Notes under the pieces: model-generated | Told to the model about the DNA's origin: nothing | Databases searched by the model: none | What the model saw: only the letters and a program-made list of their open reading frames with translations | Assembly (NCBI GenBank): GCA_038062895.1 | Contig: JBBTWJ010000005.1 | Location: 131,715-195,714 of the forward strand | From: Patescibacteria group bacterium | GTDB lineage: Bacteria; Patescibacteriota; Microgenomatia; UBA10105; UBA927 | Direction of reading: 5' to 3' | Length of the DNA: 64,000 nucleotides | In this document: in pieces, positions 4,718 to 33,480 of the stretch | Layout: every line of letters starts with the position of its first letter | Numbering within the stretch: position 1 is the first letter of the stretch | Program-made: the position numbers and the translations under genes

Positions 4718-5764
4718 ATGAAAACCTGGCAGAAGTTAAAAGCGAACCCGGAACTTTGGGAACGGTACTTCGTCCGCGAAAAGGTCATCAAGGCGATCCG
4801 GCTATTTTTTGAAACGCAGAAGTTTCATGAAGTAGAGACACCGACCCTCATGGCTCACCCGCCTGCGGAATCGTATTTGGACGTTTTCCAAATGACGCTT
4901 CTAGACCGCAATCGAAAGGGGATCTCCGCCTACCTTTCCACGTCTCCGGAAGTAGCATTAAAAAAACTCATGACGGCTGGTTTGGGAAATTGCTACGCGC
5001 TTACCAAAAGTTTCCGCAACATGGAAACACAAGGAAATCTTCATAATCCAGAATTTACTATCCTCGAATTTTACCGTGTGGGAGCCACGTACCTTGACAT
5101 TATGAGGGACATCGAATCGCTGATGGTGTTTATCGCGCAGTCGGTACACAAGGATTCACTGGTCGTCACGTATCAAGGAACATCAATTGATCTCACGCCT
5201 CCATGGGAACGGCTATCGGTCGCCCAGGCATTTGAGAAATACGCTCATGTGGATTTCGAGAAATTTTTGGATGAGAAACAAGCGCGTGAAATTGCTAAAG
5301 AAAAAGGATATGCCGTTGAAGCGAATACAACCTGGGAACAACTCTATAACCAAATTCTTCTTAATGAAATTGAACCTTACCTGGGGCAGGGGAGGCCTAC
5401 GATTCTGTATGACTTCCCGTCTTCCATGGCGGCGTTGTCCAAGAAAAAAACGAGCGATCCGCGGTTTGCCGAGCGGTTTGAATTCTACATCGCAGGGCTC
5501 GAGCTCGGCGACTGCTATAGCGAGCTTACCGATTGGAAAGAGCAAGAAGTGAGGTTTGAGCGAGAGCTTAGCGAGCTGAGACGATTAGGTAAGACAGTTT
5601 ACGACTATGATCACGATTTTATCGAAGCTCTGAAAGTTGGACTACCGGATTGCAGCGGGATCGCCGTCGGCGTTGATCGGCTCATTATGCTCCTTAGTGA
5701 CGTCACCGATATCGCCGATACGCTTTTTTTTCCGGCCGGGGAGATGTTTACGTTTTCAACGTAG
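4718..5764 (+). CDS. epmA: EF-P--(R)-beta-lysine ligase (class II lysyl-tRNA synthetase paralog, GenX/PoxA)
   Basis: Class II aaRS catalytic core without an anticodon-binding domain. Motif 2 'FRNMETQGNLHNPEFTILEFY' and motif 3 'IEALKVGLPDCSGIAVGVDRLIMLL' closely match EpmA. Confidence 0.7.
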   Translation: MKTWQKLKANPELWERYFVREKVIKAIRLFFETQKFHEVETPTLMAHPPAESYLDVFQMTLLDRNRKGISAYLSTSPEVALKKLMTAGLGNCYALTKSFRNMETQGNLHNPEFTILEFYRVGATYLDIMRDIESLMVFIAQSVHKDSLVVTYQGTSIDLTPPWERLSVAQAFEKYAHVDFEKFLDEKQAREIAKEKGYAVEANTTWEQLYNQILLNEIEPYLGQGRPTILYDFPSSMAALSKKKTSDPRFAERFEFYIAGLELGDCYSELTDWKEQEVRFERELSELRRLGKTVYDYDHDFIEALKVGLPDCSGIAVGVDRLIMLLSDVTDIADTLFFPAGEMFTFST

Positions 5765-6947
5765 AGAGAGCGATCGTTTTTCGAAGCAACAATGCGAGGG
5801 CAAGCGGCAGGACGGGGAGGATATACAGCCAGTTTTTTGCCAGTTGAATTTCATTCCCGAACTGCAGAAAGATAAATAGTCCGATGAAACTTACGGTCCG
5901 GAATATTCCCAACACAATATCGCGTTCAAGAAGTAGGTGATATTTTTGCTGCCAACTTCCTTGGGCTTGGTCCAGCACGCCAAAGTAGACGATCGACAGT
6001 TTATTGTTAAATATCGGAACGGTGAGTCCGGAAATAATAATATACGCCCAGATCCCTAGCGGCGATTGATAAAATGCAAACACAATGATCGAGAGGGCAG
6101 ATCCAGCGACACCGATCCAATAAGCAGATGGGAACTTTGTGAGAAGCGGGATAGCATAGAGATTGGACACGATTGCAATCGTCGAAAATATCGTGAGCAC
6201 GAATCCCAGATCCGCTTCATTTTTCACTATGACGAAAAATAACACGCCCGTCACGGTGCCGAGGGCAATATCAAATAAACCCAGTACTGCATTTTGTCCC
6301 AGGATGAGTTTCCAACTGCGTGTCCGTTGATGGTCCAAGATGTGATGGTATGAAAAATCCAGTGATTCATGCGCGGGGAGTTTGCCGATGACAAAGATCG
6401 TGATGATATTGATGATGGCGACCAGAAAAAATAACAGGAGATAGCCGTTTGTAACACCGAGCGATGTTTTACCGACGGTGGTGATAATCAGTCCTCCGAT
6501 TGCCGGACCCATGGCGTTGGCAAGATTAAACACTGCCCCAGCCCACCCAAAATATGAGACCCGTCTTCCGGAATGGGCGAGAATATATTGATTGAGATTA
6601 TACGAAGCCCAAAAAAACCCACCGGAAAAACCGGAGAGAATGCCCAACGGGAAGACAAAGGCGATGCTTTGGTCTTTGAGAAAAAATAAGAGAAGATAAA
6701 ATATTGATCCGGCGACGAGACTCATTTTCATCATGGTACCGGAAGAGATATGCCGGAGTGCCCAACCGGACGCCCCATAGAAAAACGTCATGGAGGCAAA
6801 TGCCGCGATATTATAAAGCGTCGTGACCTTGAGATCTCCATGGGAAAAGAAAAAAACCGTGACGAAAATATTGGCCAGAGATCCGGCCAGGATATCTAAG
6901 CCCTGGATGAGAAGGAGCTTCCGTTCGTCGGGGGATAAATTCTTCAT
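5748..6947 (-). CDS. MFS-type transporter (12 predicted TM helices)
   Basis: Regularly spaced hydrophobic helices with Gly-rich loops typical of the major facilitator superfamily. Overlaps the epmA end by 17 bp in convergent orientation. Confidence 0.6.
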   Translation of the reverse strand: MKNLSPDERKLLLIQGLDILAGSLANIFVTVFFFSHGDLKVTTLYNIAAFASMTFFYGASGWALRHISSGTMMKMSLVAGSIFYLLLFFLKDQSIAFVFPLGILSGFSGGFFWASYNLNQYILAHSGRRVSYFGWAGAVFNLANAMGPAIGGLIITTVGKTSLGVTNGYLLLFFLVAIINIITIFVIGKLPAHESLDFSYHHILDHQRTRSWKLILGQNAVLGLFDIALGTVTGVLFFVIVKNEADLGFVLTIFSTIAIVSNLYAIPLLTKFPSAYWIGVAGSALSIIVFAFYQSPLGIWAYIIISGLTVPIFNNKLSIVYFGVLDQAQGSWQQKYHLLLERDIVLGIFRTVSFIGLFIFLQFGNEIQLAKNWLYILPVLPLALALLLRKTIALSTLKT

Positions 6948-21465: not shown

Positions 21466-21912
21466 ATGAAGTGTCCATACTGCAATCACGAAGAAACAGA
21501 GGTTTTGGAGACGCGCGACAGCGAGGATTTAGCCGTGACACGCCGCCGCCGAACGTGTACCAAGTGCGAGAAACGGTTTACGACGTACGAACGGCTTGAA
21601 TCCGTGCCCATTACGGTCATCAAGAAAGACGAACGGCGAGAAACATTTGACCGGGAGAAGCTCAAGCGCGGGATTGTGCATTCAAGCGGAAAGACAACGG
21701 TAAAAGCTGAAGACATTGATCGAATCGTTGATGAGGTGGAGCGCGAGCTTATCGGCGGGGAAAGCGTGGAGGTCACCAGCAAAAAGATAGGGGAGCTCGT
21801 CGCTAAGAGATTGAAAAAATTAGATAAGGTGGCGTATATACGCTTTGCAAGCGTGTTTCGAAGCTTTGTGGATGTGGAGGATTTTGAGCGGGAAGTGAAA
21901 AAATTGCTCTGA
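21466..21912 (+). CDS. nrdR: transcriptional repressor NrdR
   Basis: N-terminal zinc ribbon 'CPYCNHEETEVLETR...RRRTCTKCEKRF' and an ATP-cone domain. The ORF-track start is a TTG, and the ATG is at 21466. Confidence 0.9.
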   Translation: MKCPYCNHEETEVLETRDSEDLAVTRRRRTCTKCEKRFTTYERLESVPITVIKKDERRETFDREKLKRGIVHSSGKTTVKAEDIDRIVDEVERELIGGESVEVTSKKIGELVAKRLKKLDKVAYIRFASVFRSFVDVEDFEREVKKLL

Positions 21913-21951: not shown

Positions 21952-24471
21952 ATGGATCTCACCGGCATCAGACAAAAAGTATTCTTAGACCGTTACGCGC
22001 TCAAGGACGAAGCGGGTAACCCTACCGAAAAAACGCCGGAGGAGATGTGGCGCCGGGTCGCCCATGCCATAGCCCAAGTGGAACCTAAAAAACAGCGTGA
22101 GCAGTGGGAGAACAAATTTTATCAGGCGATGGATAATTTCGTCCTGGTGCCCGGGGGACGGATCCTTTCGGGTGCCGGAACGGGGTATAAAGTCACCTAT
22201 TATAATTGTTTCGTAATCCCGAGCCCCCATGACTCGCGGCAGGGAATCCTCAACACTCTTTCACAAATGGTAGAAATCATGTCCCGCGGCGGCGGGGTTG
22301 GGATCAATCTCTCGAGTTTGCGTCCCAGAGGTGCGCGCGTACAGAAGGTCAACGGATTCTCGTCCGGCCCCTGCAACTGGGCGGAACTTTTCAGTGTCGC
22401 GACCCGCGACATCATTCAACAAGGGGGAAGCCGGAGGGGCGCTCTCATGCTCATGCTCTGGGATTGGCATCCGGATGTCGAGGAGTTTATCACCGTGAAA
22501 CAGGACCTCGCGCGCATTAATGGCGCAAACCTCTCTGTGTGTGTCTCGGACGCGTTCATGGAAGCGGTGAAAAAGGACGCGGATTGGGATCTCGTATTTC
22601 CCGACAAAAGTGATCCCGAGTATGACGAGAAATGGGATGGCTATCTTCCTAACTGGCTAAAGCTTGGCAAGAAAGTCATCGTTCAAAAAACAATAAAAGC
22701 CCGTGCATTATGGGACCTCGTTGCACAAGCCGCATGGAAGTCTGCAGAGCCCGGGGTTGTTTTTATGGAGCGTAATAATAAATGGTTTAATAATTATTAT
22801 TGGGAATATGTCAATTGTGTTAATCCCTGCGGTGAAGAACCGCTGCCGAATTATGGGGTCTGCAATCTCACATCCATTAATTTGTCTGCATTAGTCAATG
22901 AACAAGGCGATATGGATTATATGCGGCTCTCCGAGGTGGCCAAGACAGGCGTACGATTCCAGGATGATGTGATTGATGCTGATGTATACATATTCCCTGA
23001 GATAAAAAAACGACAAGTTGAAGGCGAACGTCGGATTGGCTTGGGGACTATGGGGCTAGGGGACGCGCTCATCAAAATGAAGCTCCGATACGGATCAAAA
23101 GAAAGTCTCGCGGTGATTGATAAGATTTATCAAACCATCCGGGACGCTGCCTACGAATCCTCTGTGGAAGTGGCGGCCGAAAAAGGCGCGTTTCCGGCAA
23201 TCGATATAAAGAAGCATCTGGAGGGATATTTCGTCAAACAACTTCCCGAAGAAATCAAAAAGAAAATAAAAAAGCATGGCGTGCGAAACTCGGTCATCCT
23301 GCAACAGGCGCCGACAGGGAGTACATCCCTCATGGTGGGAGTGAGCTCCGGCATAGAGCCGGTGTATGAGTTTGAGTTTCTGCGCCACGACCGTTTAGGT
23401 GAACACATCATCCGCCACCCATTATATGATGCGTGGGTTTCTCAATTTATCGCAACGAATAGACGAGAACCGAATAAAGCAGACCGGCCGGATTATTTTG
23501 TGTCCGCAAACGACTTGACCCCCGAGGACCACGTCTATGTCCAGGCTGCAATACAGAAACATGTCGACGCTTCGATCAGCAAGACAGTCAACGCCCCGAA
23601 GACCCATACGGTTGAGGACGTGAAGCGGCTGTATACACTCGCTTATGAATTAGGGTGCAAGGGAATCGCGTACATGCGGGAGGGGAGCAGGCAGGGAGTG
23701 CTCGAGCGGATAGAGGAAGCGAAACCCACGGTTGAGGGAAAACCAGATGAGGTGAAAGTAGCCGGTCAGTATGTGCCGGAGGTCAAGCCCCGGCCGATGG
23801 TCGTCCACGGATCGACCTACCAAGTGGAGACGCCGGTCGGACAAGCGTATGTGACCATCAATACCAATGGAGGCCGCCAGCCGCTTGAGCTTTTTATGAA
23901 CATCGGGAAGGCAGGGAGCGATGTCACCGCGATGGCGGAAGCTATGGGTCGGCTGATTTCTCTCATTTTCCGAATTGCCTCACCGGTTTCCCCAATCGAA
24001 CGCGCACACAAAGTAGCGGCAGAGCTTATCGGTATCGGGGGAGCGCGTTCTCTCGGGTTTGGGGAAAACCGGGTGCGGAGTTTGCCGGATGCCGTCGCGA
24101 AAGTCATTGACCGGCATTTTGGATTTTTTACCAAGCATAAGTTGACCGATGTCCCGCAACCTGCAGCAGGAGGCGACGTGATGGCGTCACACGAAACAAA
24201 CGGAAATGGTTCGACTCCGTTCACCACAGGTGGTGCTGCCATGACGACAACTTTAATGAATGGAGCCACCAATGGAAATGGTCATATGACGGAATTAAAA
24301 ACGGACAACAATGATGATAAAGAGCAGACAGTGGACGCGGCATCCTACCAGCGGGCGGTAGCCCAAGAGCGGGTGGTGACGGTCGATCTTTGCCCGAGCT
24401 GTGGCGAGGGGAGTCTGGTATTTGAGGAAAGTTGTAAGAAATGCTACTCGTGCGGATATTCGGAATGCTAA
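21952..24471 (+). CDS. nrdJ: adenosylcobalamin-dependent ribonucleotide reductase (class II, NrdJ)
   Basis: Class II RNR catalytic barrel with Cys-containing 'NPCGEEPL' and a C-terminal zinc-ribbon tail 'CPSCGEGSLVFEESCKKCYSCGYSEC'. Lies 39 bp after nrdR. Confidence 0.9.
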   Translation: MDLTGIRQKVFLDRYALKDEAGNPTEKTPEEMWRRVAHAIAQVEPKKQREQWENKFYQAMDNFVLVPGGRILSGAGTGYKVTYYNCFVIPSPHDSRQGILNTLSQMVEIMSRGGGVGINLSSLRPRGARVQKVNGFSSGPCNWAELFSVATRDIIQQGGSRRGALMLMLWDWHPDVEEFITVKQDLARINGANLSVCVSDAFMEAVKKDADWDLVFPDKSDPEYDEKWDGYLPNWLKLGKKVIVQKTIKARALWDLVAQAAWKSAEPGVVFMERNNKWFNNYYWEYVNCVNPCGEEPLPNYGVCNLTSINLSALVNEQGDMDYMRLSEVAKTGVRFQDDVIDADVYIFPEIKKRQVEGERRIGLGTMGLGDALIKMKLRYGSKESLAVIDKIYQTIRDAAYESSVEVAAEKGAFPAIDIKKHLEGYFVKQLPEEIKKKIKKHGVRNSVILQQAPTGSTSLMVGVSSGIEPVYEFEFLRHDRLGEHIIRHPLYDAWVSQFIATNRREPNKADRPDYFVSANDLTPEDHVYVQAAIQKHVDASISKTVNAPKTHTVEDVKRLYTLAYELGCKGIAYMREGSRQGVLERIEEAKPTVEGKPDEVKVAGQYVPEVKPRPMVVHGSTYQVETPVGQAYVTINTNGGRQPLELFMNIGKAGSDVTAMAEAMGRLISLIFRIASPVSPIERAHKVAAELIGIGGARSLGFGENRVRSLPDAVAKVIDRHFGFFTKHKLTDVPQPAAGGDVMASHETNGNGSTPFTTGGAAMTTTLMNGATNGNGHMTELKTDNNDDKEQTVDAASYQRAVAQERVVTVDLCPSCGEGSLVFEESCKKCYSCGYSEC

Positions 24472-24608: not shown

Positions 24609-25193
24609 ATGGCAATTTATACCCGTACCGGCGATACCGGATCAACGTCCCTCTTTGGCGGTAAGCGCGTCCTCAAGTGCGAGGAGCTTGTGGAGGTCTA
24701 TGGGTCGCTTGATGAGTTAAATTCGTGGATTGGGCATGTCGCATCACTCTTTCCTTCTCCGGATGTCAAACAATTTCTTCAGACCATACAATCCGATGTC
24801 TTTACGATCGGCAGCACGCTTGCAGGGTGGAAGAATGGAGATTTGACTGCACTGGAAAGCCGGGTAAAGGAAATGGAAGCGCGGATCGATGCCATGGAGG
24901 AGAGTTTACCTCCAATCCGGAATTTCATCCTGCCGGGTGGCGCGGAGTTGGCCGCTCACACACATATTACGCGCAGTATTTGCCGGAGAGTGGAGAGGCA
25001 ACTTGTTTCATTGAAGGTACGAGAAGTACAGGAAGTACAGGAAGTACAGGAGGTACGGGAGGGAGATGTTGACGTGATGATTAAGTACCTCAACCGGCTT
25101 TCGGACTTGTTTTTTATGCTCGCGCGGTTTATAAACAAGCAGGAGAATGTGGAAGAAGTGATTTGGAATGGAAACCATTCCAAATCATCCTGA
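24609..25193 (+). CDS. pduO: ATP:cob(I)alamin adenosyltransferase, PduO type
   Basis: 'MAIYTRTGDTGSTSLFGG' N-terminal signature of PduO-type adenosyltransferases. Contains an in-frame 9-bp tandem repeat encoding VREVQEVQEVQEVRE. Confidence 0.8.
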   Translation: MAIYTRTGDTGSTSLFGGKRVLKCEELVEVYGSLDELNSWIGHVASLFPSPDVKQFLQTIQSDVFTIGSTLAGWKNGDLTALESRVKEMEARIDAMEESLPPIRNFILPGGAELAAHTHITRSICRRVERQLVSLKVREVQEVQEVQEVREGDVDVMIKYLNRLSDLFFMLARFINKQENVEEVIWNGNHSKSS

Positions 25194-25227
25194 GCGAGTA
25201 AAGCGAGTCGAAGGATCTTAAAAATAC

Positions 25228-25363
25228 AGATATCAGGGGAATCGTGGTGTGAATCCACGGCTGTGCCGCAACTGTAAAGCCAGAAAACCTGAATCGTAGA
25301 CCGTCTCTCGAGCAAGGGGAATTTTTTTGGTGTAGCCCTCTTGATTATGAGAGGGCTTTTATT
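25228..25363 (+). ncRNA. cobalamin (B12) riboswitch-like leader with an intrinsic terminator expression platform
   Basis: AGGGGAA...GGUGUGAAUCC...GCUG...CCGCAACUGUAA (B12-box variant GCAACUG)...AAGCCAGAAAACCUG matches the cobalamin riboswitch core. Terminator GCCCUCU-loop-AGAGGGC followed by UUUUAUU directly abuts the GNAT ATG. Confidence 0.5.
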
Positions 25364-25837
25364 ATGGAATTTACCATACGACAGGGGACAGAAGAAAAAG
25401 ATTTTTCGCTTATCCAAGCGCTTAACGCCGCTCTTTTTGCGGAAGATCAGAATCATGACGGCGCGCTGGATACCCATTGGCCGGTGAGTGTCGCGGGCGT
25501 GGAGTATTATATGAAATCCCTCATGGACACGCAAAAAATTGTGTTCATTGCCGAGGATGATCAAACCAATCCTGTAGGGTACATCATTGCCTCGATGGTC
25601 AATAAATGGCGGTACCGTATAGTAAAAACCGGAGAACTCGAGAACATGTATGTCACTCCGGCTGCCCGAAAGCAAGGAGTGGGGCGTGCTCTCATCGAAA
25701 AAATAAAAATATGGCTGAAGGCAAAGGGAGTGGAGCGGCTCTATGTTTCCGCGTATACCACTAACACCAACGCGATAGCTTTTTACGAAACAAACGGCTT
25801 TGCGCCATGGGAGACAGGGATGGAGGCAACCCTCTAA
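25364..25837 (+). CDS. GNAT family N-acetyltransferase
   Basis: Motif A 'RKQGVGRALIEK' and the C-terminal 'NAIAFYETNGF'. Confidence 0.75.
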   Translation: MEFTIRQGTEEKDFSLIQALNAALFAEDQNHDGALDTHWPVSVAGVEYYMKSLMDTQKIVFIAEDDQTNPVGYIIASMVNKWRYRIVKTGELENMYVTPAARKQGVGRALIEKIKIWLKAKGVERLYVSAYTTNTNAIAFYETNGFAPWETGMEATL

Positions 25838-25838
25838 T

Positions 25839-27734
25839 ATGGCAGAATTTGCCCTTGGTGGAGACAACGGCGGACACAGTTGGAATAATGCCATCGCCCA
25901 CGCGACGTACGAGGAGAACGTGGAAAAGTTTGGCGCAGATACAGCAAGGAATTATTTACGGAAGGACATCCGTAGCTTCATACAGGAACAAAAAGGACAG
26001 GAAAGCCAATGGTCGCTTACTGTGCAGGGCGGCCGGATGGTAACGGAGACGGGGGTAAGCCTGGACGAAATGACCGCGAATATTACCCAGGGGCGATATA
26101 GCAATCTCGTGCCGGAGAACATAAAAGCTACCGCACCTCTAGAGGCAGCGACACTCCGGGAAGCGACAAGGCTTGCAGTTGATGGTGCGGAAAAAATTAT
26201 TTTGCCGGAACAGCATTTGGACGCGGACGGCAATATCGTTTCCCGCTATCTTTCTGTTTGGACGAAGAATGCTTCTGACTCCACACGGTATGACGGATCA
26301 AGAATTGATTTGGGAAAAAATATACGGATCGAAGACGTGCGAACCGGCACGTCTTTTACTGCATTTGAACAACATGAAAGTATCTCTTTTCATCAACATA
26401 AAGATGAAAAACGAGCGTTCGTACTGGCGATTCATTCCAATTCAGAAGACTCGTTTCGAGTGGTGAAAGATTCCTTAGTGACAAAGGTGCACAGATCTCA
26501 TCAGGAAACCTATTCGATTCCCGTCGTGCGGGAAGGACGACAGAAACAAACAGATATCAAAGAGAACCGTCATGCTGATATGTTGACGGAGGTCCCCCGT
26601 GCTGTTTTTCGTGATGTTCGTGAAACGGCAGGGAGCGTATCGATCTTTTTACGGAATAAAAAGGAACAGATTAACTATGATAACGAGAGAAAGAGCGAAC
26701 GATTAACCCTCAAAAAAATCCGTGAGAAGCCAGTGCGGCTTGGTCACGTTATCGAAAAGCGACACATCGAAATGCGCCGCGCCGTAGTATCAATCGCCGT
26801 GATCGCCGAGACCGGAGTCGCCCTCCACGCGGTGCCGGTGTTGCTTGCGAGACTCTCTGAAACGTCGCCTGCGCCGATCCGGGCGGTCGAGAAGAGTATA
26901 CGAAGACACGAGAAAAAAGTACCCCACTTCGCTAAAGCTTCGCGGGGCAGGCGGGAGGTGCAAAAAACACGAGCGGTAAGAAGGAGTTTTGAAAAGGTTC
27001 AACCCTTGAAACCCTTGATGTCAGAAAGGATTGAACCTTTCAGAAGCGTTAAAGAACGTAGGAAGAGGGTGAAGCGCGGAGGGGAGAAGTGGATCAAAAC
27101 AGTTGCGGCCGCAGAGATATTGGCACCGATCGCCACAGAAAAGCGGGAGAGGCGAGTGTGGAAACGACTGCGACGGATCATGAGGAGAGCGGAGCGAGTT
27201 CTCGAGAGTAAGCGAATGCCAAAACGAGAGAAGAAGCTGTGGCGAGCGTTGGCCGTGACTGCCGCGAAATTAGCTTCGCAAGGCCAGGCCTTGCGAAGCT
27301 GGGAAGTAAAAAAGCGAAACGATATCACCCACAAGAGTCGAGACGTTCTGACATCGAAGCCAGCCCTCGAGGCCGGGAGTTTAGCAGGGCGCAAAGAACA
27401 GGCGGCAATGGCGGGAGTCCGTTTTGCGTTCGTGGTATGGGCGTTGCTGAACCGTGCTAATTTCCCTCCGGTCGAGAGTAAATTAGCAATATTTACTTCA
27501 AAAGAAGGAAGAAGAAGAATACGTGCCAAGCTAGTTCACCCGAAGGGTGAGAAGAAGGGTGAGGAAAAAGAGTTGACGCCGTGGGTATTGCTATCCATCA
27601 TTTGGTATATGACCGCGATACGCGAGCAGGGGAGAGGATCAAATCCGACCAATCCGGCCAATATACCAATCCGACCAATTAAAAAGGTTCTAACATTTCC
27701 GCAATATGCAGTCATTTTTGCGTATGCTTCGTGA
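25839..27734 (+). CDS. large hypothetical protein: acidic N-terminal half, extremely Arg/Lys-rich C-terminal half
   Basis: ATG 1 nt after the GNAT stop. No antisense competitor of note. Contains the 29-bp palindrome in-frame (KLASQGQALRS). Possible nucleic-acid-binding protein. Confidence 0.4.
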   Translation: MAEFALGGDNGGHSWNNAIAHATYEENVEKFGADTARNYLRKDIRSFIQEQKGQESQWSLTVQGGRMVTETGVSLDEMTANITQGRYSNLVPENIKATAPLEAATLREATRLAVDGAEKIILPEQHLDADGNIVSRYLSVWTKNASDSTRYDGSRIDLGKNIRIEDVRTGTSFTAFEQHESISFHQHKDEKRAFVLAIHSNSEDSFRVVKDSLVTKVHRSHQETYSIPVVREGRQKQTDIKENRHADMLTEVPRAVFRDVRETAGSVSIFLRNKKEQINYDNERKSERLTLKKIREKPVRLGHVIEKRHIEMRRAVVSIAVIAETGVALHAVPVLLARLSETSPAPIRAVEKSIRRHEKKVPHFAKASRGRREVQKTRAVRRSFEKVQPLKPLMSERIEPFRSVKERRKRVKRGGEKWIKTVAAAEILAPIATEKRERRVWKRLRRIMRRAERVLESKRMPKREKKLWRALAVTAAKLASQGQALRSWEVKKRNDITHKSRDVLTSKPALEAGSLAGRKEQAAMAGVRFAFVVWALLNRANFPPVESKLAIFTSKEGRRRIRAKLVHPKGEKKGEEKELTPWVLLSIIWYMTAIREQGRGSNPTNPANIPIRPIKKVLTFPQYAVIFAYAS

Positions 27735-27746
27735 TATGATAAATAT

Positions 27747-28172
27747 ATGGATGGCCTACCAACCCCGCCGATGGCGGGGAATAACCCAATAAATACCAAT
27801 AATCCAATAATCCAATCAGGAAATATTTCTGTTGGGAAGGAGTTGGAGTCAGGTGTGGTGGTGAAAGAAGAGCCGGGGCTCAAGGATGTATCGGGACAGG
27901 AAATAGAGCTACCCCGCGAAGTGGCGGCAGCCGGAGTGTCTAACCAACCGACGACGGTGCAACTCCCGCAGCCGGTCTCACAAATGGGGGTAAAAGTAGT
28001 CGGGGATGCAGTGGTGCCGGCAGCGCCGCCGGTGGCGCTTCCTTTGACTGATGATCAGATTGCATTGGGACTCAAACAAAGTGTAACCACCTCTTGGCGG
28101 TGGCTCGCAGAATTCTGCGTACGGAAATTGAAACAACTACACAAAACATTAGTCAAAAGTCCAAAAGTCTAA
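27747..28172 (+). CDS. hypothetical protein (Pro/Val-rich)
   Basis: 141-codon ORF between the basic protein and the ATPase. The N-terminus is encoded by the CCAATAATCCAAT repeat. Confidence 0.3.
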   Translation: MDGLPTPPMAGNNPINTNNPIIQSGNISVGKELESGVVVKEEPGLKDVSGQEIELPREVAAAGVSNQPTTVQLPQPVSQMGVKVVGDAVVPAAPPVALPLTDDQIALGLKQSVTTSWRWLAEFCVRKLKQLHKTLVKSPKV

Positions 28173-28200
28173 AGTCGATAAAGTCTAGAAAGTAAACACT

Positions 28201-30591
28201 TTGAGACTTTCAAACTTTACGGACTTTAAGACTCATTTTATGCCATTACAATTTGCCGATCTTACCTATCAGTTGGAAATATTTGCCGTAAGCCTCTTAT
28301 TATTGGTGGTGTTTTTGACGGGCCTCGTGATCCTGGGCTATATAGCATTTCTTTTTTGGAAGTACCGAAACCGTGAAGAGCGAAGCCTCGAGTATGTGCT
28401 CATGCAGATAGCGGTCCCGAGGGAAAACGAGACGAAGATTGATGCGGCAGAGCAGTTGTTTGCAAGTTTACATTCCATTTCTCATGGTGGATTTTGGTCC
28501 TTCCTCAAGCCCCAGGACCATATTTCTTTTGAAATAGTCGCCAAGCGTGAAGATATCCGATTCTACGTATGTGTGCCCCGGCGGCTCATGGATTATGTGG
28601 AGAAGCAAATACACGGAAGCTATAGCGGGGCAGACATCAAGGAGGTAGACGAATATTCTATATTCTCCCAGACCGGCAAGGTCGCATTTGCAGCGCTCAA
28701 ACTGAAAAGTTCTAACTACTTTCCAATGCGGATATATCGGGATTTGCCGGTGGATCCACTCTCTTCCATCACCTCGGTGTTGGCTAAAATGCAGGAAGGG
28801 GAGGGGGCTGCCGTACAAATCCTCATCCAACCGGCGGACAGTAAGTGGCGAAAACTCGGCCGGGGATACATATCGAAAGTAAAAAAAGATGAGGCCAATC
28901 CCGAAAAAGCGAACTTCAAAGTGGACCCCAAAAGTCTCGAGGCAATTGAAGGCAAAGTGAGTAAACCCGGATTTAACACAGTTGTCCGATTGGTCGTATC
29001 ATCGCCGAGCGAGGAATCGGCAAAACAGCATTTGGAAAATTTGATCGGATCCTTCGAGCAGTTTGCCAGTGATCATAATAATTTTACGAAAGTGAAGCTT
29101 CCCATGAAACAGCTCTTTATGGTGGACTTCATTTACCGGTATTTTCCGGTGATCAACCTGCCACTTCTCCCGCAGCACAGCGTGCTTTCTACAGACGAGC
29201 TGGCGACTATTTTTCATTTACCGAATAAATCTATCGAGACCGCACACATCTTTTGGCTCAACGCCAAGCGCGCACCGGCTCCGTCCCAGATACCATCCTC
29301 GGGATTATTTATGGGCATCTCGCGCTACCGAGGGCAGGACCGAAGAATATATATTGGCGAAGATGACCGAAGACGGCACATGTACATCATCGGCAAAACA
29401 GGAACGGGTAAATCACAACTCCTGGAGGAGATGGTCATGCAGGATATCCATGCCGGTCATGGACTGGCCGTCGTGGATCCCCACGGAGATCTGGTCGAGA
29501 ACATTCTCGCCCGTATGCCCCCCGGTAGGGCGGAGGACGTCATCTACTTTGATCCGGGAGACAGCGAGCGGCCGATTGGCTTGAATCTCTTGGAAGCCAA
29601 GACCGAACTGCAAAAACACTTTGTGGCAACGTCTATCGTCGGGCTCATGTATAAGCTCTTTGACCCTATGAAAACCGGTATCATCGGGCCCCGGTTTGAA
29701 CATGCGATCCGAAACGCCATGCTTACCGTCATGGAAGCCATCCCCAACGGCACCTTCATCGAGGTTGTCCAGACGCTGCAACGCCCGGACTTCGTGCAGT
29801 CACTTCTGCCACTCGTCAAAGATCCGATTGTACGGCGGTATTGGACGGATCAGATTGCCCAAACCGCGGACTTTCATAAATCGGAGGTCCTGGACTACAT
29901 CGTCTCGAAATTCGGGCGGTTCATCACCAACAAGCTCATCCGCAATATCATCGGACAATCCTATTCCAGTTTTGAATTCCGCAAAGTCATGGATGAGGGG
30001 AAGATACTCCTCGTCAATCTCGCAAAGGGGAAGCTGGGGGAGGAGAACAGCAATTTTCTGGGACTCATCCTTGTTCCCCGGATTTTGATTTCTGCTATGA
30101 GTCGGCAGGAAATACCGGAGGAGAAACGGCGGGACTTTTATCTGTACGTGGATGAGTTTCAAAATTTCGCGACCCCCGACTTTGCCCAGATCCTGTCCGA
30201 AGCCCGGAAATACCGTCTCAACCTCATCGTTGCCAACCAGTTCATCGGGCAGATGGAGGAGGAAGTGAAAAATGCGGTATTTGGAAACGTAGGTACCGTG
30301 GCTTCGTTCCGTATCGGTGTCACCGATGCCAACTACCTGCAGCATGAATTTCAGCCGACTTTCAATGAAAGTGATCTCATCAACATTGATCGCTTCAACG
30401 CGTACGTCAAAACGACCGTTCACAACGAGCCGGTCAAGCCGTTTAGCATGGATTTGACCAAAGACATGAGTAAGGTCACGGCGTCCAAAAATCCGGCTGT
30501 GGCCGCGGCCATTGTCCAGCTCTCGCGCCTCAAGTATGGCAGGAGCAAAGAGCTCGTGGAAGCCGAGATAGCCCAGAGAGCAAGACTATAA
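28201..30591 (+). CDS. membrane-anchored coupling-protein-like ATPase (VirD4/TraG/TraD/TrwB family, FtsK-HerA superfamily)
   Basis: N-terminal TM helices. Walker A 'IIGKTGTGKSQ' and Walker B 'FYLYVDEFQNFA'. About 800 aa, as for type IV coupling proteins. Confidence 0.6.
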   Translation: MRLSNFTDFKTHFMPLQFADLTYQLEIFAVSLLLLVVFLTGLVILGYIAFLFWKYRNREERSLEYVLMQIAVPRENETKIDAAEQLFASLHSISHGGFWSFLKPQDHISFEIVAKREDIRFYVCVPRRLMDYVEKQIHGSYSGADIKEVDEYSIFSQTGKVAFAALKLKSSNYFPMRIYRDLPVDPLSSITSVLAKMQEGEGAAVQILIQPADSKWRKLGRGYISKVKKDEANPEKANFKVDPKSLEAIEGKVSKPGFNTVVRLVVSSPSEESAKQHLENLIGSFEQFASDHNNFTKVKLPMKQLFMVDFIYRYFPVINLPLLPQHSVLSTDELATIFHLPNKSIETAHIFWLNAKRAPAPSQIPSSGLFMGISRYRGQDRRIYIGEDDRRRHMYIIGKTGTGKSQLLEEMVMQDIHAGHGLAVVDPHGDLVENILARMPPGRAEDVIYFDPGDSERPIGLNLLEAKTELQKHFVATSIVGLMYKLFDPMKTGIIGPRFEHAIRNAMLTVMEAIPNGTFIEVVQTLQRPDFVQSLLPLVKDPIVRRYWTDQIAQTADFHKSEVLDYIVSKFGRFITNKLIRNIIGQSYSSFEFRKVMDEGKILLVNLAKGKLGEENSNFLGLILVPRILISAMSRQEIPEEKRRDFYLYVDEFQNFATPDFAQILSEARKYRLNLIVANQFIGQMEEEVKNAVFGNVGTVASFRIGVTDANYLQHEFQPTFNESDLINIDRFNAYVKTTVHNEPVKPFSMDLTKDMSKVTASKNPAVAAAIVQLSRLKYGRSKELVEAEIAQRARL

Positions 30592-30889: not shown

Positions 30890-31396
30890 ATGTTAGAAGA
30901 TACGTGGTACCAATTATATGTAAAGTCTCCATTGGGAAACGGTTATACAACGCCCCAAGCAATGAAACGCATAGATGACTATCTCATCTCAAAAACCCCT
31001 GCGTCATTTGTTGCGCCAACAGGTCTGCCGGAACAAGGTGAGGACGGAACATGGGAAATTCGAGTGCATCAGCAATCAGCCCTTGTACTTGTTAAACGCA
31101 TTCTCACTGAGCATTATGGTTTAGAAATCGTCCGAGAAGTGGAGAATGCACCAAAGGTTGAGGGAGAGGCGCCGATGGACGATGACATTACAAAACGAGC
31201 CCTGACAATCGCCGAAATGGAAGATCACACGATTAACCCAGGTGCGATCAAGGTTCTTGGAAAGCTGTTTGCTAAGTATGGTGTGGGTGACATATCGAAG
31301 ATCGAACAATTGAAACTCACCTATATACAGGTGTGGGCACGTTACAAAACAGCTGGCTATGACATTTCGATTATGCATCAACAGCTATATAGTTGA
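30890..31396 (+). CDS. hypothetical protein
   Basis: ORF in an AT-rich segment with an AGGAGA RBS. No motif recognised. Confidence 0.35.
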   Translation: MLEDTWYQLYVKSPLGNGYTTPQAMKRIDDYLISKTPASFVAPTGLPEQGEDGTWEIRVHQQSALVLVKRILTEHYGLEIVREVENAPKVEGEAPMDDDITKRALTIAEMEDHTINPGAIKVLGKLFAKYGVGDISKIEQLKLTYIQVWARYKTAGYDISIMHQQLYS

Positions 31397-31915: not shown

Positions 31916-33325
31916 ATGGCGCGGGGTTTACTTTTTATTGCAACTGCTATAGTGTTGTTTATCATGGGTGATGAAATTACCGTTTATATCGCCAACATGT
32001 CTGAGGACGTGTGGCCCTTCATATCCAGTATCTCCGACAAGAAGATGTTTGAGTTTGAGATAGAGGATAACGCACACCTGGGAGACCGCGACATATTTGC
32101 CGTCGCCCCCAATGGCGGGATCCTTTGTGTGTTGCCCCGGACAGTGAGCGAGGCGTATCTTGCCTACTACAGTCAGATCATGAATGTGACGAACGCCCGC
32201 GTGGTCGTGCCCCCGAAGCATACGGGGGAAATCTGTGAGGATATATTGCGTAGTGAAAAGACGTTAGACGCGTTGATCGAGGCCTCGGGCGAACATAAAT
32301 CATTGACACTTCTCTCTTACACGACATCCTTGCAGTTTTTGCAGCTGGTAAAAGTTTTGCGGGAGCGGGGAATAAAAGTAAATACTCCGGAAGCCCCGGA
32401 AGAGGAAGATGCATGGATTGTCAATTTTTTTGGCAGCAAATCGGGTATCCGGCAGTTTGTCCAGAAAAGCGGTGCGGTCGAACCGGATCTGCGGATGCCA
32501 GAGGGCCTGTTTTGCGTGGGGATCGATGACGCGGCGCGGATCGCTGCCAATAAATACGTTGCCCGCGATGGGGTCGTCATCAAAACCAATAAGGGACACT
32601 CGGGAAGCGGGGTGCTTATTTTCCGTCCCGGGGAACTGCCCAAGCAGTACAGTGTGTGCCGCGAAAAAATCCGGGAGACGTTATCAAAAGATGTGTATTG
32701 GGACCGGTTTCCGATCGTCATTGAGGACTATATTGCCGCTAACCCTGGTGTCGGGGGCGGGTTCCCCAATGTGGAGTTTAAAGTGCAGAAAAGCGGGAAA
32801 GTGGAATTCTTATACTACTGTGGGATGCGGGTGACCAAAGAAGGGTCATTCCGTGGCGTGGAGATACACCACAGCGTGGTTTCGGACAAGATAGAGGCGC
32901 AGATGGTGGATACGGGATTTTTTGTCGGTGAGCAGTATGCTAAGGCCGGGTACCACGGGTACTATGATGTGGACTTTGTGGCCGGCCGGGGAGGGGAGCT
33001 TTTTGTGACGGAATCCAACGTACGGCGTACGGGCGGGACGCACGTCTACGCTGTAGCCAACCGTCTGTTCGGAAAAGAGTTCATGTACGAGACGTATACG
33101 CTTTCGTGTAATACCTATCCGCTGCCGAAGGGGAAGAAGTTTACGTTTACTTCGTTGCTCGAAATATTGAAACCAGTTCTTTTTGATAAAAAGACGCGCG
33201 AAGGGGTCATATTAGTATCTGAAAATATGTTGGAGATGGGGCAGATGCAGTACATCATCTTCGGGGCTAATAAAAAGAGAGCGCTCGAGATTGAGGCGGA
33301 AATGGAGAGATTGTTAGTTGGTTAG
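31916..33325 (+). CDS. ATP-grasp family ligase with N-terminal extension
   Basis: 'VVIKTNKGHSGSGVLIF' and 'FVTESNVRRTGGTH' ATP-grasp motifs. Confidence 0.55.
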   Translation: MARGLLFIATAIVLFIMGDEITVYIANMSEDVWPFISSISDKKMFEFEIEDNAHLGDRDIFAVAPNGGILCVLPRTVSEAYLAYYSQIMNVTNARVVVPPKHTGEICEDILRSEKTLDALIEASGEHKSLTLLSYTTSLQFLQLVKVLRERGIKVNTPEAPEEEDAWIVNFFGSKSGIRQFVQKSGAVEPDLRMPEGLFCVGIDDAARIAANKYVARDGVVIKTNKGHSGSGVLIFRPGELPKQYSVCREKIRETLSKDVYWDRFPIVIEDYIAANPGVGGGFPNVEFKVQKSGKVEFLYYCGMRVTKEGSFRGVEIHHSVVSDKIEAQMVDTGFFVGEQYAKAGYHGYYDVDFVAGRGGELFVTESNVRRTGGTHVYAVANRLFGKEFMYETYTLSCNTYPLPKGKKFTFTSLLEILKPVLFDKKTREGVILVSENMLEMGQMQYIIFGANKKRALEIEAEMERLLVG

Positions 33326-33399: not shown

Positions 33400-33471
33400 G
33401 GGGCTGTAGCTCAGCGGTAGAGCGCTACTCTTATAAAGTAGATGTCCTTGGTCCGATCCCAAGCAGCCCCA
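33400..33471 (+). tRNA. tRNA-Ile (anticodon UAU)
   Basis: Hand-folded cloverleaf with acceptor GGGGCTG/CAGCCCC, D stem GCTC/GAGC, anticodon stem CTACT/AGTAG, loop CTTATAA, T arm CTTGG-TCCGATC-CCAAG. CCA not encoded. Confidence 0.75.
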
Positions 33472-33480
33472 CCTGTTGGC

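Follow-up and report, generated by a model that had tools for sequence, protein, structure and literature searches.

A chromosomal operon of an ultra-small groundwater bacterium belonging to the Gottesmanbacteria (Microgenomatia, CPR/Patescibacteria) appears to couple genes of the B12 regulon with a conserved translocation motor that is tied to the supply of deoxynucleotides, with a cobalamin riboswitch as the gate; we place the probability of this reading at roughly 45%. On the + strand of the 64-kb stretch of DNA analyzed (the window), the order is nrdR-nrdJ-adenosyltransferase, an AdoCbl-II riboswitch with a terminator-like hairpin, and then genes for a GNAT acetyltransferase, a 631-aa protein (referred to here as Big), a 141-aa protein (p141), and a membrane-anchored ATPase. 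The original prediction grouped the last three into a single module. All three reading frames are confirmed in strand and position, but the genes are separable: p141 and the ATPase constitute the conserved core, and Big is a lineage-specific addition tied to the riboswitch.

The co-directional string begins with nrdR (21466..21912), encoding the transcriptional repressor of ribonucleotide reductase (RNR) genes, which was identified by Pfam Zn_ribbon_NrdR and ATP-cone matches on an identical contig, and whose ATG at 21466 was checked. It is followed by nrdJ (21952..24471), coding for a class II (B12-dependent) RNR with Ribonuc_red_lgN, Ribonuc_red_lgC and TSCPD domains, and by a gene for a PduO-type ATP:cob(I)alamin adenosyltransferase (24609..25193; Pfam Cob_adeno_trans, E 6e-53), all on the + strand. 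The suggestion that a B12 riboswitch lies ahead of the module holds, as an AdoCbl-II aptamer (RF01689) at 25220..25298 on the + strand scores 44.2 bits, above its gathering score of 36.5. In 10 related loci the corresponding slot likewise carries cobalamin-riboswitch matches above gathering score, and the aptamer P-stem has compensatory changes (alignment A3). A putative expression platform (25334..25363, + strand) consists of a 10-bp hairpin and a U-tract extending up to the GNAT start codon. The hairpin is present in both MFE and centroid folds, is the strongest terminator-like site on the + strand from 24.4 to 33.6 kb, and – read directly from the sequence – includes the Shine-Dalgarno-like GAGAGGG in its 3′ arm. 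With B12 bound, the hairpin (25334-25357) would both terminate transcription and mask the ribosome-binding site; under B12 shortage, transcripts coming from nrdJ and the adenosyltransferase gene would extend into GNAT-Big-p141-ATPase.

An upstream same-strand B12-box, found on the + strand only, is present in 48 of 60 species, and missing in 12, eight of which were confirmed as riboswitch-free with Rfam. The first gene past the box is Big in 23 species, another large unassigned protein in five more, and DUF4430 or DUF6580 in 13; in sister species the riboswitch lies upstream of DUF4430 and DUF6580 together. The riboswitch is immediately 5′ of Big or a Big-slot protein in loci L040 and L049, the latter having two riboswitches, one of them immediately before the Big-slot protein. 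We propose that the operon is composed of two units of different age, the first of which – GNAT and Big, behind the AdoCbl-II riboswitch – would belong to the B12 regulon because it sits in the slot that in sister species holds the B12-uptake pair DUF4430 and DUF6580, a Big homologue, or both. GNAT (25364..25837, + strand; Pfam Acetyltransf_1, E 8e-19) is the first gene past the riboswitch and received no specific assignment in an NCBIfam search; a second locus, L057, also has a GNAT-Big pair, with the two genes overlapping.

Big (25839..27734, + strand) was delineated from its homologues, alignment A2, and profile matches in related loci, and the length of 632 aa given earlier appears to include the stop codon. 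Its N-domain (aa 20-226, nt 25896-26516) is of alpha/beta type and is the only part for which the AF2 model has a pLDDT of 80-92. The conserved motif ERLTLxKIREKP lies together with a hydrophobic helix at aa 287-339 (nt 26697-26855), and aa 341-520 form a helical region rich in K/R. The C-terminal module (aa 515-631, nt 27381-27731), also conserved, combines two hydrophobic helices with an ..AVIFAYAS tail. The bipartite charge ascribed to it is correct for the strongly basic C-terminal half (residues 251-631, 92 K+R versus 38 D+E), but the N-terminal half (residues 1-250) is only mildly acidic, with 31 K+R versus 37 D+E. A dN/dS of 0.20-0.23 against two relatives shows that Big is a genuine gene subject to purifying selection; it evolves about ten times faster than the ATPase. 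It is conserved, with protein-database homologues falling into 25 clusters and 44 ORF matches in the fetched loci, including a few duplicate copies of the same contig. It is confined to the Gottesmanbacteria and missing from other Microgenomatia that retain p141-ATPase, and in L010 a 4-kb insertion parts it from p141-ATPase, leaving Big with the riboswitch. Searches of Pfam, NCBIfam, PADLOC, PHROG and PDB gave no match to Big.

We infer for Big the role of a basic, membrane-associated accessory that serves the motor as adaptor or client and is made only at B12 shortage. By analogy with T4SS effectors that have C-terminal VirD4-binding domains, it could be secreted or translocated by the ATPase, with the C-terminal module as recognition signal and p141 as adaptor. 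The C-terminal ~120 aa are indeed the best-conserved part while the N-terminal region diverges fast, the C-terminal half is basic, Big is the immediate 5′ neighbor of p141-ATPase in almost all loci of the Gottesmanbacteria, and fast evolution is often seen in exposed proteins. However, such a role is unlikely: each fetched locus has one copy of Big in constant position, the C-module was found only in full-length homologues of Big, its conserved segments, hydrophobic helices, resemble membrane anchors, and other Microgenomatia have p141-ATPase without Big. Nor are T4SS channel genes nearby; as originally reported for relaxase, VirB4 and pilus genes, no relaxase, VirB4, VirB6 or pilin was found among 17 scanned window proteins (the products of every gene between 24.6 and 33.3 kb, plus those of the ten largest of the remaining window ORFs).

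The whole module might alternatively be a system for B12 or corrinoid acquisition, with the ATPase powering uptake and replacing or aiding DUF4430/DUF6580 in this clade, in keeping with its riboswitch control, uptake genes being the usual targets of B12 riboswitches, with the location of Big in the DUF4430/DUF6580 slot, and with there being no DUF4430 or DUF6580 gene within the 64-kb window. We consider this quite improbable, as we know of no B12 transporter with an FtsK/HerA-type ATPase, no known B12-binding domain was found in Big, and many species have both Big and DUF4430/DUF6580. Moreover, two loci in which p141-ATPase is linked to nrdD (L078 and L085) are riboswitch-free and gave no match to DUF4430 or DUF6580.

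The second unit of the proposed operon would be p141 and the ATPase, found at the 3′ end of RNR operons throughout the Microgenomatia. p141 (27747..28172, + strand) is a small low-complexity protein with 157 database homologues, all hypothetical and without a Pfam domain, and with no transmembrane segment by hydropathy. A conserved C-terminal motif, LPLTDDQIAxGLxQSxxxSWRWLAEFCVRKLKQLH (aa 98-132, nt 28038-28142), is present, and p141 would contact the ATPase by way of its conserved C-terminal amphipathic helix. Of the 74 related loci with a complete ATPase ORF, 71 have a p141 homologue immediately 5′ of the ATPase. In the window, GNAT and Big are separated by 1 nt, Big and p141 by 12 nt, and p141 and the ATPase by 67 nt, and stop/start overlaps occur in relatives between Big and p141 (at least eight loci), DUF6580 and p141 (L047 and L052), and p141 and the ATPase (several loci). 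These tight gaps and overlaps support co-transcription of GNAT-Big-p141-ATPase, and the overlaps with p141 leave no room for an intergenic promoter at that position.

The ATPase (28240..30591, + strand) is a 783-aa membrane-anchored protein of the VirD4/VirB4 clade, which starts at the ATG at 28240 and not at a TTG at 28201, because homologues are 782-786 aa in length. The N-terminal transmembrane helices noted previously reduce by hydropathy to a single hydrophobic stretch (aa 12-40, nt 28273-28359). Beyond this are a DUF8128 domain of ~300 aa (aa ~50-345, nt 28387-29274; precomputed on near-identical proteins), Walker A GKTGTGKS (aa 385-392, nt 29392-29415), a helical insertion (aa ~456-585), and Walker B YLYVDEFQNF (aa 634-643, nt 30139-30168). 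The assignment to the FtsK/HerA superfamily near VirD4/TraG is well founded, with Pfam TrwB_AAD_bind, TraG-D_C and T4SS-DNA_transf all above their cut-offs and TrwB and DotL as the best PDB sequence matches. The ATPase belongs to a large family (5,956 clusters at 50% identity, E <= 1e-30), matches PHROG 5156 (E 3.6e-96), and is under strong purifying selection (dN/dS 0.018-0.026). Downstream are an unconserved 168-aa ORF (30890-31396) and a gene for a PGM1-like ATP-grasp ligase (31916..33325, + strand; Pfam PreAtp-grasp and PGM1_C, synteny table), which comes after the ATPase in most Gottesmanbacteria loci and whose membership of the module is uncertain.

p141-ATPase is persistently linked to RNR genes. 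In 51 of 53 species-level loci a co-directional RNR gene lies upstream of the ATPase; 40 of these are nrdJ-type, five are of another class II type, and six are nrdD, so that classes II or III are represented. The order nrdD-nrdG(-MazG)-p141-ATPase is seen in L068, L078 and L085, with a cobalamin riboswitch upstream of nrdD-nrdG in L068, and in L063, L072 and L077 the adenosyltransferase, in unchanged position, is of CobA rather than PduO type. The locus itself is chromosomal and does not lie on a mobile element, with synteny kept across 80 species-level genomes.

Conceivably, this is an operon of convenience, in which the riboswitch governs only B12 cargo (GNAT and Big, or elsewhere DUF4430/DUF6580) and p141-ATPase, as a housekeeping motor of the T4SS coupling type, is expressed independently and functionally unconnected with B12 or RNR. 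Synteny is generally kept in these small genomes – an ATP-grasp gene and a tRNA are also 3′ of the ATPase in many loci – and the adjacency to RNR and riboswitch may therefore stem from slow rearrangement rather than shared function. Such an arrangement would accommodate the 12 species in which p141-ATPase lacks the riboswitch, the loci in which pyruvate kinase or other unrelated genes are directly upstream of p141-ATPase, and the distant family members L086 and L087, which have quite different neighborhoods devoid of RNR or B12 context. The very low dN/dS of the ATPase points the same way, since a protein so strongly selected would hardly be expected to be expressed at B12 scarcity only, and there may be an internal promoter. 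Nonetheless, we view it as a possible but doubtful explanation, because p141 overlaps Big in many loci and a B12 transporter gene in L047 and L052, and because RNR adjacency outlasts changes in both RNR class and adenosyltransferase type.

We favor the riboswitch-gated operon, with the ATPase – one N-terminal anchor helix, the VirB4-N-domain-like DUF8128, and a TrwB/VirD4-like P-loop domain with its helical insertion – probably acting as an oligomeric motor for translocation or docking, either alone or for a T4SS encoded elsewhere in these bacteria. Given how persistently this motor is attached to RNR genes, its substrate may have to do with DNA-precursor supply; candidates would be nucleic acid or nucleotides from a host or the surroundings. 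RNR linkage would also fit a possible role in DNA uptake.

Mobilisation, put forward in the original prediction, would make Big a relaxase-like DNA processor, p141 an accessory, and the ATPase a coupling protein. Relaxase-accessory-T4CP cassettes such as trwABC and pcfCFG have a similar gene order, the ATPase has T4CP-type Pfam matches, and Big has a basic region. But Big lacks a relaxase family match and a HUH-like fold match, and none of its His or Tyr residues is invariant across 24 homologues. The locus lies in the chromosome between nrdJ and housekeeping genes, with synteny in 80 species; GC content is uniform, and no close relative was found in viral contigs. Relaxases are also rare in Patescibacteria, with 109 reported in 103 genomes (PMC12102498). 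A minimal conjugative unit is thus highly improbable, and we reject it on the grounds of chromosomal synteny and the lack of relaxase features in Big.

Compared with type IV coupling proteins (TrwB of R388, VirD4, TraD/TraG, DotL), the ATPase shares the FtsK/HerA P-loop domain with Walker A and B, a helical insertion matching TrwB_AAD_bind, and an N-terminal membrane anchor. It differs in having one hydrophobic helix rather than two transmembrane helices, in the ~300-aa DUF8128 between anchor and ATPase domain, in having no relaxase or Mpf genes nearby, and in being chromosomal, p141-paired, and slowly evolving (dN/dS ~0.02). It also falls below every curated full-length TraD/VirD4 cut-off (58 versus 366 bits for TraD). 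Its top Foldseek matches are TrwK/VirB4 (E 1e-10, ~710-780 aligned columns), better than any T4CP, although model quality is moderate overall and the P-loop domain is modelled with low confidence (mean pLDDT 59), such that the resemblance derives mainly from the DUF8128 part. The model suggests a VirB4-like (TrwK of R388) layout of an N-terminal domain followed by an ATPase domain, but the VirB4 sequence signature is missing (TIGR00929 E 0.055; no CagE_TrbE_VirB match), and there is no VirB3-like membrane protein upstream, since p141 has no transmembrane segment. At the sequence level the kinship to coupling proteins holds, but the ATPase is not a canonical one.

Cobalamin-riboswitch regulons classically place the switch over B12-uptake genes and B12-independent isozymes such as nrdDG. 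The present locus resembles these in its above-threshold aptamer, in the DUF4430 and DUF6580 downstream in sister species, and in the nrdD-nrdG of L068, but the window genes under the switch – GNAT, the orphan protein Big, and then a T4SS-type ATPase – include no known regulon members. PHROG 5156 proteins of Bacillus and Geobacillus phages (phage G gp156, SP-10, TP-84, vB_BceS-M2) are homologous to the ATPase over 83-91% of the length, including DUF8128 (E down to 5e-38), at an identity of only 20-23%, and their genes likewise follow one for a small protein. Those phage genes differ in lying in the early region; in TP-84, the one phage protein examined full-length, no N-terminal anchor was seen, and the small upstream proteins of TP-84 and vB_BceS-M2 have two hydrophobic stretches (by eye) and no similarity to p141.

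A close parallel is offered by the 'orphan' T4CP homologues of Patescibacteria, proteins of the same kind and phylum that number about two in each genome and mostly lie at a distance from virB4: 5,713 VirD4-like homologues were reported in 2,918 genomes, with 148 near virB4, and were proposed to be 'possibly exapted' (Quinonero-Coronel et al. 2025, PMC12102498). The ATPase is a member of this very large family. The passages of that report consulted here mention neither a p141 partner, a DUF8128 or VirB4-like N-domain, linkage to RNR operons, nor a B12 riboswitch, and the attachment to RNR in almost every related species hints at a non-conjugative, and now testable, job for this motor pair.

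The segment is chromosomal and belongs to the Gottesmanbacteria (Microgenomatia, Patescibacteria/CPR); the nearest genome records carry the name Candidatus Gottesmanbacteria, and contigs identical to the window come from Hainich groundwater metagenomes. Between 21.4 and 33.3 kb every gene is on the + strand, beginning with nrdR (21466-21912), the class II ribonucleotide reductase (RNR) gene nrdJ (21952-24471), and a PduO-type adenosyltransferase gene (24609-25193). An AdoCbl-II riboswitch (25220-25298) and a 10-bp hairpin with a U-tract (25334-25363), which ends at the next start codon, lead into a GNAT gene (25364-25837) and the three genes of interest, coding for a 631-aa protein designated Big (25839-27734), the 141-aa p141 (27747-28172), and a 783-aa ATPase (28240-30591). 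The genes are closely spaced: 1 nt separates GNAT from Big, and the gaps before p141 and the ATPase measure 12 and 67 nt, respectively. Downstream lie an unconserved 168-aa ORF (30890-31396) and a gene for a PGM1-like ATP-grasp ligase with PreAtp-grasp and PGM1_C domains (31916-33325); in most Gottesmanbacteria loci the latter lies 3′ of the ATPase, as close as 3 nt in the related locus L059, and it may belong to the same operon. The remainder of the window is housekeeping, including a class I (Trp/Tyr-type) tRNA synthetase, FtsH, GMP synthase, an aldehyde dehydrogenase, MFS transporters, and glycosyltransferases. An unusual tRNA-Ile gene with anticodon TAT was located by ARAGORN at 33400-33473; in most bacteria AUA is decoded by a lysidine-modified CAT tRNA.

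Homologues of the ATPase are 782-786 aa long, and its start is corrected from the TTG at 28201 of the original prediction to the ATG at 28240. The several transmembrane helices previously proposed at its N-terminus reduce to one 29-aa hydrophobic stretch (aa 12-40), separated from Walker A by a domain of ~300 aa, DUF8128 (PF26449), which precomputed database annotations of identical or near-identical proteins and homologues assign to the identical L001 protein and to all 120 ATPase homologues among the matches listed. The Walker A and Walker B motifs are intact. The proposed VirD4-like character is well supported, as TrwB_AAD_bind scores 36 bits against a Pfam cut-off of 20.5 (aa 389-687), TraG-D_C, T4SS-DNA_transf, and DUF87 also exceed their Pfam cut-offs, and TrwB (E 2e-7) and DotL are the only significant matches in a PDB sequence search. 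The best NCBIfam matches are TraD models, at 58 bits against a cut-off of 366, and the protein fails the curated full-length models TIGR03743, TIGR03754, TIGR02759, and NF045973.

The predicted structure points to a second relationship. The AlphaFold2 model has a mean pLDDT of 59, with the DUF8128 part mostly at 70-85, helices at aa 456-585 mostly between 45 and 80, and a P-loop part that is poor because the alignment is shallow. With this moderate-quality model the best 14 Foldseek matches in the PDB are R388 entries containing TrwK/VirB4, the best having an E of 1e-10 over ~710-780 columns, with DotL at 2e-4. A VirB4 signature is not recovered by sequence profiles (TIGR00929, E 0.055, 11.7 bits against a cut-off of 643; no match to Pfam CagE_TrbE_VirB). 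The type IV coupling protein (T4CP)-like sequence and the VirB4-best model together suggest that the protein joins an ATPase domain of T4CP type to a two-domain layout resembling that of VirB4; we place it in the VirB4/VirD4 clade, as a canonical member of neither family.

The ATPase has a near-constant partner. It was fetched with its surroundings from 80 species-level loci, 74 of which have the ATPase ORF in full; in 71 of these it is immediately preceded by a p141 homologue, which often overlaps its start. What looks like a fusion of the two genes in L043 is an artefact, caused by a stretch of N in the scaffold. The N-terminal part of p141 is of low complexity, rich in P, V, and Q, and the protein has no transmembrane segment, but its C-terminus carries the conserved motif LPLTDDQIAxGLHQSxxSSWRWLAEWCxRRLKQ. 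All 157 database homologues are hypothetical proteins with no Pfam domain. Upstream of more distant ATPase family members (44-47% identity) there is likewise a small protein of low complexity, for which homology to p141 is not demonstrable.

The three genes had been read as a possible minimal module for DNA translocation, mobilization, or uptake. We now regard a role in conjugative mobilization as extremely improbable and reject that reading, since no relaxase, VirB4, VirB6, pilin, or other type IV secretion system (T4SS) channel gene is present among the 17 window proteins scanned and the locus shows chromosomal synteny. Origin from a mobile element or phage is likewise rejected: GC content is uniform, synteny extends over 80 species, no close relative turned up in viral contigs, and Big and p141 lack a PHROG match. 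The same holds for an anti-phage defense system; in PADLOC the ATPase domain alone is recognized, by the mad8 (E 4e-14) and HerA models, and Big, p141, GNAT, and the ATP-grasp protein gave no match.

The neighbors of the ATPase in related loci are instead RNR, adenosyltransferase, B12-uptake, and ATP-grasp genes. Where 6 kb or more of upstream sequence was at hand (53 loci), a co-directional RNR gene is found 5′ of p141-ATPase in 51 – 40 of nrdJ type, five of a different class II type that has an ATP-cone, and six class III nrdD. In L068 (4401-7553), L078 (4518-7494), and L085 (4108-7424), nrdD and its activase gene nrdG sit directly 5′ of p141-ATPase in place of nrdJ and the adenosyltransferase; in L068 MazG is also directly upstream and a cobalamin riboswitch precedes the string. 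In L063, L072, and L077 an unrelated adenosyltransferase, of CobA/BtuR type, is encoded together with a Maf nucleotide pyrophosphatase. RNR adjacency has therefore outlasted exchanges of reductase class and of cofactor enzyme alike, and this survival is the strongest argument for a functional tie of p141-ATPase to deoxynucleotide supply. Against such a tie, gene order is generally conserved around the locus in these small genomes, and distant ATPase family members have no RNR context. These two points favor an ‘operon of convenience’, in which the linkage is mere synteny; given the adjacency retained through both swaps, we consider this somewhat unlikely.

Several other features of the related loci were observed. 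A ~470-485-aa protein, recognized by eye as a pyruvate kinase, is encoded directly 5′ of p141 in L064 (5945-7357), L071 (1524-2981), and L072 (6052-7500), in the last case downstream of RNR, Maf, PIN-domain, and CobA-type adenosyltransferase genes. The nrdJ product of the window has 839 aa, and ORFs of 1,150-1,560 aa in L009 (1079-4651), L026 (11-4687), L061 (1530-5018), and L067 (1476-4934) have lengths that suggest intein insertions. A group I intron (RF00028, 63.6 bits) is present in the Chisholmbacteria locus L077 (13059-13279, - strand).

The B12 riboswitch postulated over the module is confirmed by Rfam, with RF01689 scoring 44.2 bits against a threshold of 36.5 upstream of the gene string. 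A strict sequence pattern for the cobalamin riboswitch, the B12-box, precedes the ATPase in 48 of the 60 species that could be evaluated; it is found at most once per locus, except in L049 (two), and never on the reverse strand. In the related loci the element is always on the coding strand and upstream of the string, and a cobalamin riboswitch exceeds the Rfam threshold in 10 of the 16 motif-bearing loci tested. The B12-box is absent in the other 12 species, eight of which were verified by Rfam as riboswitch-free, and p141-ATPase is present there. The hairpin at 25334-25363, recognized by sequence and position only, is terminator-like and contains a ribosome-binding site; the leader RNA fold is no more stable than that of shuffled sequences (z = -0.69).

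The first gene after the B12-box is most often Big (23 riboswitch sites), with further large proteins of no assigned family filling that slot at five sites, one of the B12-uptake pair DUF4430 and DUF6580 at 13, zinc-ribbon proteins at four, the adenosyltransferase at two, and GNAT and an unassigned 659-aa protein (L068) at one each. DUF4430 (transcobalamin-like) and DUF6580 (an ECF-S-like membrane protein) are encoded behind the riboswitch in 20 related loci, both of them in 18, for example in L016 (6603-7512), L049 (4902-5860), and L084 (5740-7024) as well as 17 others. They occupy the slot held by GNAT and Big in the window, and neither is found in its 64 kb. This company, together with the riboswitch, would suit a role of the module in B12 uptake itself; set beside the presence of p141-ATPase in the species with no B12-box and its position behind class III reductase genes, we think such a role very unlikely.

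Big has ties of its own to the riboswitch. In L049 two AdoCbl-II riboswitches are present, one (4806-4876) before DUF4430-DUF6580 and the other (5847-5926) directly before a Big-slot protein; in L040 the riboswitch is directly 5′ of the Big-slot protein, in L010 Big adjoins the riboswitch despite an insertion parting it from p141-ATPase, and in L038 Big is ahead of the DUF4430-DUF6580 pair. From these arrangements Big is a member of the B12 regulon. Its ORF is conserved, with 25 homologue clusters, all from Gottesmanbacteria or unnamed Patescibacteria, and 44 ORFs recovered by profile searches in the fetched loci. Compared with the closest genome, Big is 60% identical with a dN/dS of 0.23, and the ATPase 97% identical with a dN/dS of 0.018; the dN/dS of Big indicates a real gene under relaxed purifying selection.

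The bipartite composition attributed to Big holds for its basic C-terminal half (92 K+R against 38 D+E, residues 251-631), and the asymmetry is real, but the N-terminal half (residues 1-250), described as acidic, is only slightly so, at 31 against 37. Conservation peaks in the C-terminal ~120 aa, with the hydrophobic helices FAWxVWMMLNRANF and PWVLLSIIWYLTAIRE and a tail ending AVIFAYAS; a central ERLTLEKIREKP motif and a hydrophobic helix rank second, the K/R-rich region varies in length and the N-terminal ~230 aa diverge rapidly. In the AlphaFold2 model an alpha/beta N-domain is predicted with confidence (pLDDT 80-92, aa ~60-226), the rest of the chain showing long helices of low confidence, and no significant fold match was found in the PDB, the best being PAS/LOV/Cache-like (E 0.09). 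Profile searches with Big found no match in Pfam, NCBIfam, PADLOC, PHROG, or PDB sequences. Across 24 homologues the invariant positions are I156, R308, W582, I587, R595, E596, and I626, none of them a His or Tyr; the idea of a conjugative relaxase (HUH/MOB) is therefore rejected, there being also no family match and no HUH-like fold. We envisage Big as a membrane-associated basic accessory or client. That Big is itself translocated by the ATPase would be in keeping with its basic half and its place in the string; with its conserved hydrophobic helices, we judge this improbable.

Proteins of 387-457 aa with a C-terminal CxxC...CxxC zinc ribbon are encoded in L054 (6168-7517), L059 (5887-7203), L066 (6275-7438), L067 (6196-7518), and L081 (6059-7432). 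They follow the B12-box in other Microgenomatia, with an Rfam-confirmed riboswitch ahead of them in L066 and L067, and follow the adenosyltransferase in L081. Pairwise hhalign comparisons with the Big N-domain give weak signals (E 0.004-0.09), and these proteins may share that domain.

The ATPase family is large, with more than 7,800 homologues scored in a word-indexed search and 5,956 clusters at 50% identity (E <= 1e-30) in an exhaustive one. This fits the account in PMC12102498, where 5,713 VirD4-like T4CP homologues are reported from 2,918 Patescibacteria genomes, only 148 of them near virB4, and exaptation is proposed as possible; the ATPase is a new member of this family, noticed earlier and uncharacterized. 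Fused domains in very long family members are limited to TPR repeats or unassigned extensions: P0162, P0164, and P0174 (1,700-2,000 aa) have C-terminal extensions of ~900-1,200 aa with no known domains, and P0220 and P0222 (~1,450-1,500 aa) have ~1,000 aa including TPR repeats in place of the DUF8128 region. Unexpectedly, the DUF8128 ATPase architecture recurs in phages of Bacillus and Geobacillus (PHROG 5156, E 3.6e-96), including TP-84 (L088, 6492-9031), vB_BceS-M2 (L089, 6388-9040), Bacillus phage G (gp156), and SP-10, all of which are lytic; tblastn alignments cover 83-91% of the ATPase length at 20-23% identity. In TP-84 and vB_BceS-M2 the homologue lies in the early gene region, with a small upstream protein that has two hydrophobic stretches and was judged by eye to be pilin/VirB3-like.

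Patescibacteria lack nucleotide and cofactor synthesis of their own and require a T4SS for growth on their hosts. We propose, with a probability of roughly 0.45, that p141-ATPase is functionally tied to its RNR/B12 context. With cobalamin bound, the hairpin (25334-25357) would end transcription and hide the ribosome-binding site; under B12 scarcity the entire GNAT-Big-p141-ATPase string would be expressed. The ATPase would be anchored in the membrane and work as an oligomeric T4SS-type motor, to which p141 would bind by its C-terminal helix. In view of the RNR linkage, the most appealing guess for the substrate of this motor is nucleic acid or nucleotides. A more specific and rather unlikely version makes p141-ATPase a motor dedicated to the acquisition of nucleic acid or nucleotides in Microgenomatia and built into the RNR operon; in nrdJ-type genomes B12 limitation would switch it on through the riboswitch, along with lineage-specific basic accessories such as Big. 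DNA precursors (or B12-loaded cargo) would be drawn from the host or surroundings through T4SS-type machinery when the B12-dependent reductase cannot work. If so, it would be the first case of riboswitch control over a T4SS-family ATPase, and a substrate class could be named for the essential Patescibacterial T4SS; if the linkage is mere synteny, the findings still exclude a mobile element and correct the ATPase classification.

A VirD4-like ATPase, with a partner protein that is absent from the literature searched, is placed at the end of an RNR operon (51/53) and behind a B12 riboswitch (48/60). That literature contains no mention of p141, the VirB4-like N-domain, the phage relatives, the Big family, or the conserved placement of the ATPase behind the riboswitch and RNR genes, and it yielded nothing on DUF8128, or on DUF4430 in connection with riboswitches. 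Through B12 and deoxynucleotide supply the locus offers a regulatory and metabolic handle for experimental work with enrichments or cultivable relatives, adds the orphan Big family and possibly the zinc-ribbon proteins of other Microgenomatia to the B12 regulon, and reveals a DUF8128 ATPase architecture common to Bacillus phages.

Among known systems, the T4CPs (VirD4/TraG/TraD/TrwB) are nearest by sequence and share the FtsK/HerA-superfamily P-loop domain with the ATPase. However, in T4CPs two transmembrane helices lead directly into the ATPase domain, whereas the window protein has a single helix and DUF8128, and T4CPs are linked to relaxase/Dtr or T4SS channel genes, none of which turned up among the 17 window proteins scanned. 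T4CPs also have an all-alpha domain inserted in the nucleotide-binding domain, to which the helices modeled at aa 456-585, within the TrwB_AAD_bind alignment, may correspond. VirB4 proteins have an N-terminal domain and a C-terminal ATPase domain, an arrangement that the window ATPase appears to share according to its moderate-quality model; a VirB3-like small membrane protein precedes VirB4 or is fused to it, whereas p141, in the corresponding position, has no segment of transmembrane grade.
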